Below, in pieces: positions 23,131-23,214 of a stretch of 64,000 bases of DNA. The notes below the pieces were generated by a model that saw only the letters and a list, made by a program, of their open reading frames with translations, did no database searches and was not told where the DNA came from. Source of the DNA: Escherichia phage WPEC5; the sequence record PV654397.1; one strand, written 5' to 3'. The translations under genes and the position numbers were made by a program. Each line of letters opens with the position of its first letter. Positions within the stretch are counted from its first letter, which is position 1.

Positions 23131-23214
23131 CTGGTAGTACTGGAGTCGAACCAGTCTTGTCATTTCTGACACGGATTAACAGTCCGTTGCATAAGGCCGA
23201 TATGCTAACTACCA
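23131..23214 (-). tRNA. type II tRNA (long variable arm) with apparent anticodon GUU
   Basis: manual fold: acceptor TGGTAGT/ACTACCA, D-stem GCAT/ATGC, anticodon stem ACGGA/TCCGT with loop CTGTTAA, variable-arm hairpin GTCA-GAAA-TGAC, T-arm ACTGG-TTCGACT-CCAGT, discriminator G, CCA not encoded. Confidence 0.75.

Follow-up and report, generated by a model that had tools for sequence, protein, structure and literature searches.

The 64,000-nucleotide (nt) stretch of Escherichia phage WPEC5 analysed here (sequence record PV654397.1; hereafter the window) carries at 23131-23214, on the minus strand, a bona fide tRNA gene with the anticodon GUU and a long variable arm of the class II kind. We consider it probable, from its identity elements and from its relatives, that the gene specifies a working asparagine tRNA on a class II, five-arm body and that it inserts asparagine. 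To our knowledge, textbooks give the long variable arm in bacteria only to the leucine, serine, tyrosine and selenocysteine (Sec) tRNAs. As an annotation the gene is not new, because GenBank records already call such genes tRNA-Asn. Our search of open-access papers and bioRxiv, which included reviews of tRNA identity, non-canonical tRNAs, tRNA arrays and phage tRNAs, turned up no account or explanation of a tRNA-Asn with class II shape.

A tRNA gene with anticodon GUU and a long variable arm

The gene and its diagnostic parts lie in the window as follows.

23131..23214, minus strand: tRNA-Asn(GUU) of class II shape, 84 nt, CCA not encoded (ARAGORN, Rfam RF00005, RNAfold)
23178..23180, minus strand: anticodon GUU (positions 34-36) in the loop CUGUUAA (ARAGORN, Rfam alignment, direct reading)
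23156..23170, minus strand: variable arm of 15 nt, the hairpin GUCA-GAAA-UGAC followed by unpaired AAG (parsing, RNAfold)
23131, minus strand: discriminator G73 (direct reading), with the first pair U1-A72 at 23214/23132

ARAGORN called tRNA-Asn (gtt) at 23130-23214 on the minus strand, an 85-nt call with the anticodon at position 35. The Rfam model RF00005 matched 23131-23214 (minus strand) over its full length (1-71) at 47.5 bits (E = 3.9e-8; gathering score 29), and its alignment placed CU-GUU-AA as the anticodon loop and showed 12 inserted bases in the variable region, 3′ of the anticodon stem. Folding with RNAfold revealed a minimum-free-energy structure identical to the centroid, a five-arm cloverleaf of -28 kcal/mol (z = -3.26), and only 1 of 200 shuffled sequences was equally stable.

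Read along the minus strand, the first half of the gene is UGGUAGU UA GCAU-AUCGGCCUU-AUGC A ACGGA CUGUUAA UCCGU and the second half is GUCA-GAAA-UGAC-AAG ACUGG UUCGACU CCAGU ACUACCA G. Every stem is perfect, including the acceptor stem of 7 base pairs (bp) and the D stem of 4 bp. The variable-arm hairpin abuts the anticodon stem, with no unpaired base on its 5′ side, a 4-bp stem, a GAAA loop and three unpaired bases on its 3′ side. The acceptor/T branch has the standard 7/5 configuration, and the core combines U13-A22 with A9 and also carries G2-C71 and C11-G24.

A preliminary description of this gene, made from the sequence alone, had folded it by hand. Its cloverleaf, 7-bp acceptor stem, 4-bp D stem, G73, GTCA-GAAA-TGAC hairpin and GUU anticodon were all confirmed by ARAGORN, Rfam and RNAfold, and the atypical mix of long variable arm, GUU and G73 to which it drew attention was borne out, with the gene on the minus strand. 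It had also allowed that a covariance model might move the anticodon; in the Rfam alignment GUU stays at positions 34-36, and no alternative fold presents another triplet. Three other kinds of unusual tRNA were considered and excluded. The 7/5 configuration sets the gene apart from allo-tRNAs (8/4 or 9/3) and, together with the position of the extra bases in the variable region and not in the anticodon loop, from Sec tRNA and intron-containing tRNA.

Asparagine identity elements

The pair U1-A72 is the typical first pair of bacterial tRNA-Asn and a determinant for GatCAB. The WPEC5 gene carries it, together with G73 and with GUU in a 7-nt loop that has U33 and A37. At positions 28-43 (16/16) and throughout the T arm (17/17) it matches exactly an Escherichia coli tRNA-Asn copy, L355, which was the lone weak match in a BLAST search of the tRNA against a database of 5,426 E. 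coli genomes, whose size limited the search to this one match, and may be a strain variant. L355 differs by one T-loop base from what we take to be the K-12 tRNA-Asn. In E. coli, asparagine identity consists of the three anticodon bases and G73 and can be transplanted into a tRNA-Lys body (PMC9976931).

Comparison of first pair, discriminator and pair 2-71 across phage tRNAs gave the following values (number of sequences in brackets after each class).

Long-arm tRNA-Asn (112): U1-A72 in 72% (81/112); G73 in 94% (105/112); pair 2-71 G-C in 46% and C-G in 43%
Ordinary phage tRNA-Asn (93): U1-A72 in 86%; G73 in 99%; pair 2-71 C-G in 59% and G-C in 35%
Phage tRNA-Tyr (61): G1-C72 in 87%; A73 in 100% (61/61); pair 2-71 G-C in 85%
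Phage tRNA-Ser (117): G1-C72 in 87%; G73 in 74%; pair 2-71 G-C in 94%
Phage tRNA-Leu (109): first pair G-U and G-C in 43% each; A73 in 99% (108/109); pair 2-71 C-G in 71%

Ordinary tRNA-Asn(GUU) genes, such as those of E. coli and of phages T5, SP27 and ELP-22, share with the WPEC5 gene the loop CUGUUAA, G73, U1-A72 and the predicted synthetase and codons. They differ in having a 5-nt variable loop where WPEC5 has a 15-nt hairpin, in their D loop and in an unrelated acceptor-stem sequence.

A family of long-arm tRNA-Asn genes in phages

The family sample was drawn from IMG/VR by a pattern scan that required a GUU anticodon and a long variable region. Among the matches listed, 112 distinct sequences have intact stems; viral contigs thus hold at least 112 distinct long-arm tRNA-Asn(GUU) sequences. 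Members are defined by GUU, G73, a variable region of ≥10 nt that forms a hairpin, about three free 3′ bases and the 7/5 branch, and the WPEC5 gene shows every one of these traits. When the same pattern was run without the length limit, the 120 matches listed comprised 12 long and 108 ordinary forms, about 10% long.

A BLAST search with a 96-bp region around the gene returned 239 phage records. All of the best 60 of these 239 align across the arm, and 44 of the 60 are annotated as tRNA-Asn or tRNA-Asx, the other 16 being unannotated. Long-arm genes are present in isolated phages, namely the T4-like Enterobacter phage CC31 and Serratia phage CHI14 (annotated at 82 and 81 nt), the Salmonella jumbo phage Munch (85 nt) and the E. 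coli Phapecoctavirus ESCO25 (86 nt). Neither CHI14 nor CC31 has a tRNA-Asn in its tRNA cluster other than the long-arm gene.

Bacterial long-arm tRNA-Asn genes lie mostly in dense arrays of 20-36 tRNA genes per 8 kilobases (kb), as in Micromonospora, Verrucosispora and Bradyrhizobium. A solitary tRNA-Asn(GUU) of 83-85 nt was seen at nine loci from Solirubrobacterales and an unclassified metagenome-assembled genome; at one of them (L264) genes for a short-chain dehydrogenase and a glycosyltransferase lie to one side of it and a helix-turn-helix gene to the other. The solitary Solirubrobacterales gene may be the cell's own tRNA-Asn.

Long variable regions were also observed on other isotypes. 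The tRNA-Lys species are the main target of PrrC and PARIS; in five alphaproteobacterial and other arrays, tRNA-Lys(UUU) and tRNA-Lys(CUU) genes of 86-91 nt stand beside a long-arm tRNA-Asn. One viral contig (L093, 2862-13241) holds ordinary and long forms in pairs, for Asn (72/89 nt), Cys (75/89), Thr (74/82), Pro (76/87) and Asp (73/90). The long Thr, Cys, Lys and Arg forms in the sampled loci tend to have 3-4 unpaired 3′ bases and keep their own discriminator.

Pattern matches from six Flavobacteriia loci were excluded from the family, being tandem chromosomal tRNA-Asn copies with a palindromic insert. In the three of these loci that were compared, the variable loop of some copies is replaced by an 18-nt perfect palindrome (for example TCCCGATAGCTATCGGGA), and some palindrome copies have mutated anticodon loops or broken T arms. 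These copies look like an inserted palindromic element or decaying duplicates.

Geometry and covariation of the variable arm

Analysis of the arms across the family (112 and 114 sequences) revealed a stem of 3-4 bp with 0-1 unpaired base on the 5′ side. On the 3′ side, three unpaired bases are present in 46/114 sequences and four in 22/114, and GNRA tetraloops are very frequent (GAAA in 39/112). Among phage tRNA-Tyr genes, 43/61 have a 3-bp arm stem and 31/61 have three unpaired 3′ bases, a likeness in short stem and 3′ spacing that extends to the WPEC5 gene. Phage tRNA-Ser arms have a stem of 5-6 bp, with one unpaired 3′ base in 78/117 and three in 5/117, and tRNA-Leu arms from the same phage loci have a stem of 3-4 bp with one. 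The variable loop of ordinary phage tRNA-Asn is 5 nt long in 85/93; at 15 nt, the WPEC5 gene falls outside the short-loop class I form.

Covariation was assessed in a gap-free alignment of 27 relatives with a 15-nt arm. Three arm-stem pairs show compensatory double changes, each in 14-16 of the 27 sequences, and the covariation score of 0.652 compares with 0.168 in shuffled alignments (0/500 reach it) and with ≤0.139 in slid controls. Class II traits of the tRNA core are far commoner in long forms (G13-A22 in 39% and G9 in 40%) than in ordinary tRNA-Asn (6% each). Members from the enterobacterial phage clade share the stem sequence GUC.../...GAC; in other members, pairing alone is kept. Because its stem is maintained by compensatory changes, the arm is evidently a selected RNA structure, with a geometry of the tRNA-Tyr type.

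The 5′ strand of the WPEC5 arm, GUCA, matches four bases of what we take to be the E. coli tRNA-Tyr variable arm. That tRNA presumably also has the stem GUC.../...GAC and a D loop of the AGCGGCC type, both as in the WPEC5 tRNA-Asn.

Tyrosine and serine as alternative identities

The preliminary description had raised insertion of serine or tyrosine at asparagine codons. This is not supported, in view of the full asparagine set, U1-A72, the Asn-like anticodon and T arms, an arm geometry unlike that of tRNA-Ser and the lack of A73. Its term "Ser/Tyr-like body" is at best half right, as the D loop and variable arm are Tyr-like and the 3′ half is Asn-like. A leucine identity is excluded by G73 in place of A73.

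The gene might be a recent tRNA-Tyr mutant (A36 to U) that is still charged with tyrosine, or a decaying pseudogene. The anticodon of tRNA-Tyr(GUA) is one base from GUU, the arm geometry and D loop are Tyr-like, and a classifier of the masked tRNA body gives Tyr a score no lower than that of Asn. In E. coli and yeast, however, U35 and A73 are critical for tyrosine, and leucine identity also depends on A73 (PMC9976931). Bacterial tRNA-Tyr has A73, A36 and G1-C72, and all 61 phage tRNA-Tyr genes carry A73, whereas the WPEC5 gene has G73, U36, U1-A72 and Asn-like anticodon and T arms. Its stems are perfect, the GUU design recurs in more than 100 distinct sequences, and relatives carry tRNA-Asn at the locus. 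The comparative data largely refute this explanation, which we regard as highly improbable. The change of A36 to U proposed in the preliminary description retains some appeal as an old Tyr-to-Asn origin, which the arm and D loop make conceivable, but as a recent event it conflicts with G73, U1-A72, the GUU family and the tRNA-Asn of the relatives. The same description had envisaged that related phages might hold a canonical tRNA-Tyr(GUA) here, with the WPEC5 copy as a singleton mutation; instead, the relatives show an ordinary or long-arm tRNA-Asn, and the family is large and always GUU.

Serine is the only serious rival identity. Here host seryl-tRNA synthetase (SerRS) would charge the tRNA with serine, fully or partly, and serine would be placed at some asparagine codons. 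Serine identity is determined chiefly by the long variable arm, and SerRS ignores the anticodon (PMC9976931; PMC7609411). Class II tRNAs that carry foreign anticodons and are charged according to their body are known, as in the nev-tRNAs (PMC3333845) and the allo-tRNAs (PMC5389517), and the WPEC5 copy has G73, G2-C71 and C11-G24. The arm, however, is of the Tyr type (4 bp, three unpaired 3′ bases), as against 5-6 bp and one in phage tRNA-Ser. SerRS reads the spacing between this arm and the T arm, and serylation can be lost through one bulge or through a change at the base of the arm (PMC7590224), so a Tyr-type arm would fit it poorly.

Other identity elements also argue against serine. Both G1-C72 and G2-C71 are conserved in bacterial tRNA-Ser, and C2-G71 is a SerRS antideterminant (PMC9976931); the first pair of WPEC5 is U1-A72 and not G1-C72, and C2-G71 occurs in about 43-45% of long-arm genes (48/112; 50/111), which retain the arm all the same. 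The asparagine determinants are conserved family-wide, and the gene takes the slot of an ordinary tRNA-Asn. The asparagine codons AAC and AAU make up 6.05% of the 14,489 codons in the open reading frames (ORFs) of the window, so systematic mis-insertion would be very costly. Comparison with related phages, which the preliminary description had proposed for the recoding idea, told against it in the same way, with the WPEC5 gene occupying the place of the relatives' ordinary tRNA-Asn. We judge a dual or wrong identity of this kind very unlikely.

Bacterial tRNA-Ser shares with the WPEC5 gene the long arm, G2-C71, C11-G24 and G73, the last of these non-discriminating because it is common to tRNA-Asn; it differs in G1-C72 and in an arm stem of 5-6 bp with one free 3′ base, against U1-A72, 4 bp and three. 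The WPEC5 anticodon is also not a serine anticodon, a difference to which SerRS is blind. The nematode nev-tRNAs (PMC3333845), the allo-tRNAs (PMC5389517) and anticodon variants of tRNA-Ser likewise combine a long arm with a foreign anticodon. These tRNAs keep leucine or serine identity, are charged by their body and mistranslate, whereas the WPEC5 tRNA carries the full set for the amino acid of its own anticodon.

Several observations weigh against an asparagine identity. The trio G2-C71, C11-G24 and G73 in the WPEC5 copy forms part of the E. coli serine set, and some serylation may occur. Synthetases of the Asp/Asn/Lys group within class II, as in the AspRS-tRNA complex, approach their tRNA on the side of the variable loop, where a long arm could obstruct asparaginyl-tRNA synthetase (AsnRS). 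Asparagine is also not separated from other isotypes by the masked-body classifier, which consists of per-isotype hidden Markov models built from phage tRNAs with the anticodon, variable arm and position 73 removed (held-out accuracy 288/397); it scored the WPEC5 body at 33.3 bits for Cys, 31.5 for Tyr and 31.1 for Asn.

Among 72 long-arm tRNA-Asn genes, the nearest tRNA of the same genome was Leu in 12, Tyr in 10, Lys in 9 and Ser in 7, which is partly a length effect. A short tRNA-Asn was nearest in only 2/23, and no clear origin emerges.

The tRNA cluster and the endonuclease cassette

DNA around the tRNA cluster is 87-98% identical to that of E. coli phages JP4, ELP-22, PBECO4, Turkey3 and others, and by this similarity the source is a jumbo phage of the PBECO4/121Q group (Asteriusvirus-like). 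The cluster runs along the minus strand from tRNA-Ser(GCU) through tRNA-Met(CAU) to tRNA-Asn(GUU), its last tRNA gene, which is followed by an ORF of 180 amino acids (aa).

23556..23584, minus strand: promoter-like TGGACA-17-TATAAT with an upstream TG, 11/12 matches (consensus scan, pattern match only)
23460..23549, minus strand: tRNA-Ser(GCU), first gene of the cluster, ordinary class II with a 5-bp variable-arm stem (ARAGORN; Rfam 58.9 bits)
23227..23305, minus strand: tRNA-Met(CAU), upstream neighbour of tRNA-Asn (ARAGORN; Rfam 54.2 bits)
22523..23065, minus strand: ORF of 180 aa directly downstream of tRNA-Asn, resembling HNH-type homing endonucleases and bearing NUMOD3 and HNH motifs
22511..23224, minus strand: cassette of about 715 bp with the endonuclease gene and the long-arm tRNA-Asn (blastn)

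Homology to the Asteriusvirus ELP-22 in blastn stops at 22507 and restarts at 23224, and the 715-bp interval matches only Klebsiella phages Muenster and phiKp_21 (79% nucleotide identity to Muenster, at 1495-2206 of locus L001). These sharp breakpoints and this restricted match indicate that the gene arrived as a cassette. Muenster has an annotated tRNA-Asn, to which the WPEC5 tRNA-Asn is 92% identical, and next to it an annotated HNH endonuclease, with which the 180-aa product shares 76% identity from end to end. Pfam models for HNH (18.8 bits) and NUMOD3 (16.9 bits) matched the ORF slightly below their curated cut-offs.

In the closest relatives the syntenic slot holds a class I tRNA-Asn, of 75 nt in SP27 and 72 nt in ELP-22, which represent two other sequence types; these relatives have an ordinary tRNA-Asn and a small ORF where WPEC5 has the cassette. 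On this comparison, cassette transfer is what brought in the long-arm tRNA-Asn with the HNH gene and replaced a class I tRNA-Asn.

Of 78 viral (IMG/VR) loci with a relative of the 180-aa HNH protein, 68 have it within a same-strand tRNA cluster, with 398 tRNAs in 236 kb. The commonest immediate neighbour of these relatives is tRNA-Asn, long or short, which stands directly downstream in 16/52 distinct loci and directly upstream in 6/6 of the closest homologues. This distribution suggests an endonuclease family that homes at tRNA-Asn genes. Cassettes of the T4 SegB type (PMC13096335) are alike in having an endonuclease within a tRNA cluster, sharp breakpoints and a replaced neighbouring tRNA allele; SegB is a GIY-YIG enzyme, whereas the WPEC5 endonuclease is HNH/NUMOD3 and its homing is only predicted.

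The cassette raises an alternative at the DNA level, in which the 10-bp insertion in the variable region serves to break a homing-endonuclease site, so that the allele resists cutting, and the hairpin is merely tolerated in a tRNA that is still asparagine-specific. The long-arm gene is coupled to an HNH gene in both WPEC5 and Muenster, the HNH relatives favour tRNA clusters and tRNA-Asn neighbours as just described, and endonucleases of the free-standing kind, T4 SegB among them, act in tRNA regions and bring about co-conversion of flanking markers (PMC13096335). Yet the tRNA-Asn genes beside HNH relatives are mostly short (downstream 13 short versus 3 long; upstream among the closest, 3 versus 3), and in CHI14 and CC31 the long-arm gene has no annotated endonuclease gene within 1.5 kb on either side. 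The base-paired hairpin with its fixed geometry and frequent GNRA loops, together with class II core traits in many long forms, points to selection on the RNA and weakens this explanation, which we consider improbable.

Other features of the cluster were noted. The region contains 12 promoter-like sites in total against 8.7 expected from shuffled sequence, and the one at 23556..23584, just upstream of tRNA-Ser, is a candidate promoter of the cluster. The tRNA-Met(CAU) gene is 79 nt long by ARAGORN, a span that includes a 3′ CCA, and has an enlarged D loop (ACGCGUGGUUA); it may be an elongator Met, an initiator or a lysidine-type Ile tRNA. On the plus strand, the Rfam families Plastid-psbl-rps4 (23463-23514) and Plastid-ycf2 (23229-23305) matched at 25.5 bits each, against gathering scores of 68 and 65.7; lying antisense to tRNA-Ser and tRNA-Met, these matches are most likely artefacts of tRNA-like sequence.

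A second cassette occupies 20326-20858 on the minus strand, with tRNA-Thr(UGU) at 20786-20858 followed by a 135-aa HNH ORF at 20326-20733 (Pfam HNH 21.6 bits). It stands in place of 85 bp in ELP-22, where the tRNA-Thr allele is quite different.

A possible function for the variable arm

In the mechanism that we propose, the long-arm tRNA would be co-transcribed with its cluster and processed by host RNase P and other RNases, and a host enzyme would add the CCA end. Host AsnRS, reading only the anticodon and G73, would charge it with asparagine, and the charged tRNA would decode AAC and AAU. The arm would alter the shape beside the anticodon stem in a way that keeps out host nucleases that cut tRNA-Asn but leaves the tRNA acceptable to AsnRS, EF-Tu and the ribosome, so that the phage could go on decoding asparagine codons once host tRNA-Asn is destroyed.

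That the arm serves escape from tRNA-cutting host defences such as PARIS is a tentative suggestion, possible but on the doubtful side. It is put forward because PARIS targets tRNA-Asn and because variable arms are known targets of Retron-Eco7 and Septu: the variable arm of tRNA-Tyr is both target and escape determinant for these two systems, whose PtuAB cuts U47|C48. The PARIS nuclease AriB cuts between positions 40 and 41, tRNA-Asn is among its targets, the T5 versions of three tRNAs neutralise PARIS, and the substitution U16C impaired cleavage of tRNA-Lys (PMC12409363). In WPEC5 the arm starts three bases 3′ of the cut between 40 and 41, and a C stands in the D loop at the position that corresponds to U16C. 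Both the Thr(UGU) and the Asn(GUU) genes of WPEC5 lie in HNH cassettes of their own, and each is unlike the relatives' alleles.

The cut site itself speaks against escape. The AriB site of the WPEC5 tRNA-Asn, U36-A-A-U-C|C41 (UAAUCC), is unchanged from E. coli, whereas it is changed in the T5 tRNA-Asn (UAAGUU) and in the relatives' class I alleles. Given an unchanged site, escape would need the arm or the D loop.

The anti-PARIS tRNAs of T5 are a close parallel, each being a phage copy of a defence-targeted tRNA, and WPEC5 also has a tRNA-Thr(UGU) that is substituted at 39-41. The T5 tRNAs are class I and escape through substitutions at or near 40|41 and in the D loop, whereas the WPEC5 tRNA-Asn keeps the cut-site sequence and adds an arm. 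As to the threonine gene, the WPEC5 copy reads G39-U40-C41 where the bases at the AriB site of E. coli tRNA-Thr(UGU) are U39-C40-A41 (PMC12409363).

The RNA might instead act mainly as a decoy that occupies a host tRNA nuclease (PtuAB of Retron-Eco7 or Septu, or AriB) and takes little part in translation. Its arm begins with GUCA, like the region of the PtuAB cut in what we take to be the E. coli tRNA-Tyr sequence. The authors of the AriB study considered over-expressed viral tRNAs as possible competitive inhibitors (PMC12409363). Across the 112 diverse sequences, however, the acceptor stem, G73, the loop C32-U33-GUU-A37-A38 and the T arm are conserved, which argues for a tRNA used in translation; outside the enterobacterial clade the arm conserves pairing and not sequence, and in several phages the long-arm gene is the sole tRNA-Asn of the cluster. 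A decoy role is accordingly rated very unlikely.

Extended to the family, the proposal becomes that of a widespread counter-defence design, in which an arm of the Tyr type is grafted onto tRNA-Asn, the identity is kept and escape depends on shape, in contrast to the base-substitution escape shown for T5. We hold this to be rather speculative and somewhat doubtful. As part of such a design, the arm may have been grafted, more rarely, onto Lys, Thr, Cys and Ile tRNAs in phages and mobile arrays. A stronger variant is that the arm may confer a deliberate second identity, serine.

Implications

With these genes, tRNA-Asn becomes a fifth kind of tRNA with a long arm, in more than 100 sequences and about 1 in 10 of the phage tRNA-Asn genes sampled. 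The carriers include cultured phages of E. coli, Klebsiella, Enterobacter, Serratia and Salmonella, in whose GenBank records the label is plain "tRNA-Asn". For annotation, the family is a warning that an arm of this kind combined with a non-serine anticodon should not be taken as recoding.

If the tRNA is charged with asparagine, then a class II body must be acceptable to AsnRS, EF-Tu and the ribosome, which would be useful for tRNA engineering. Because PARIS targets tRNA-Asn, Retron-Eco7 and Septu attack variable arms and a homing endonuclease accompanies the gene, the family offers a test case for the proposal that phages have tRNAs in order to outlast tRNA-targeting immunity.

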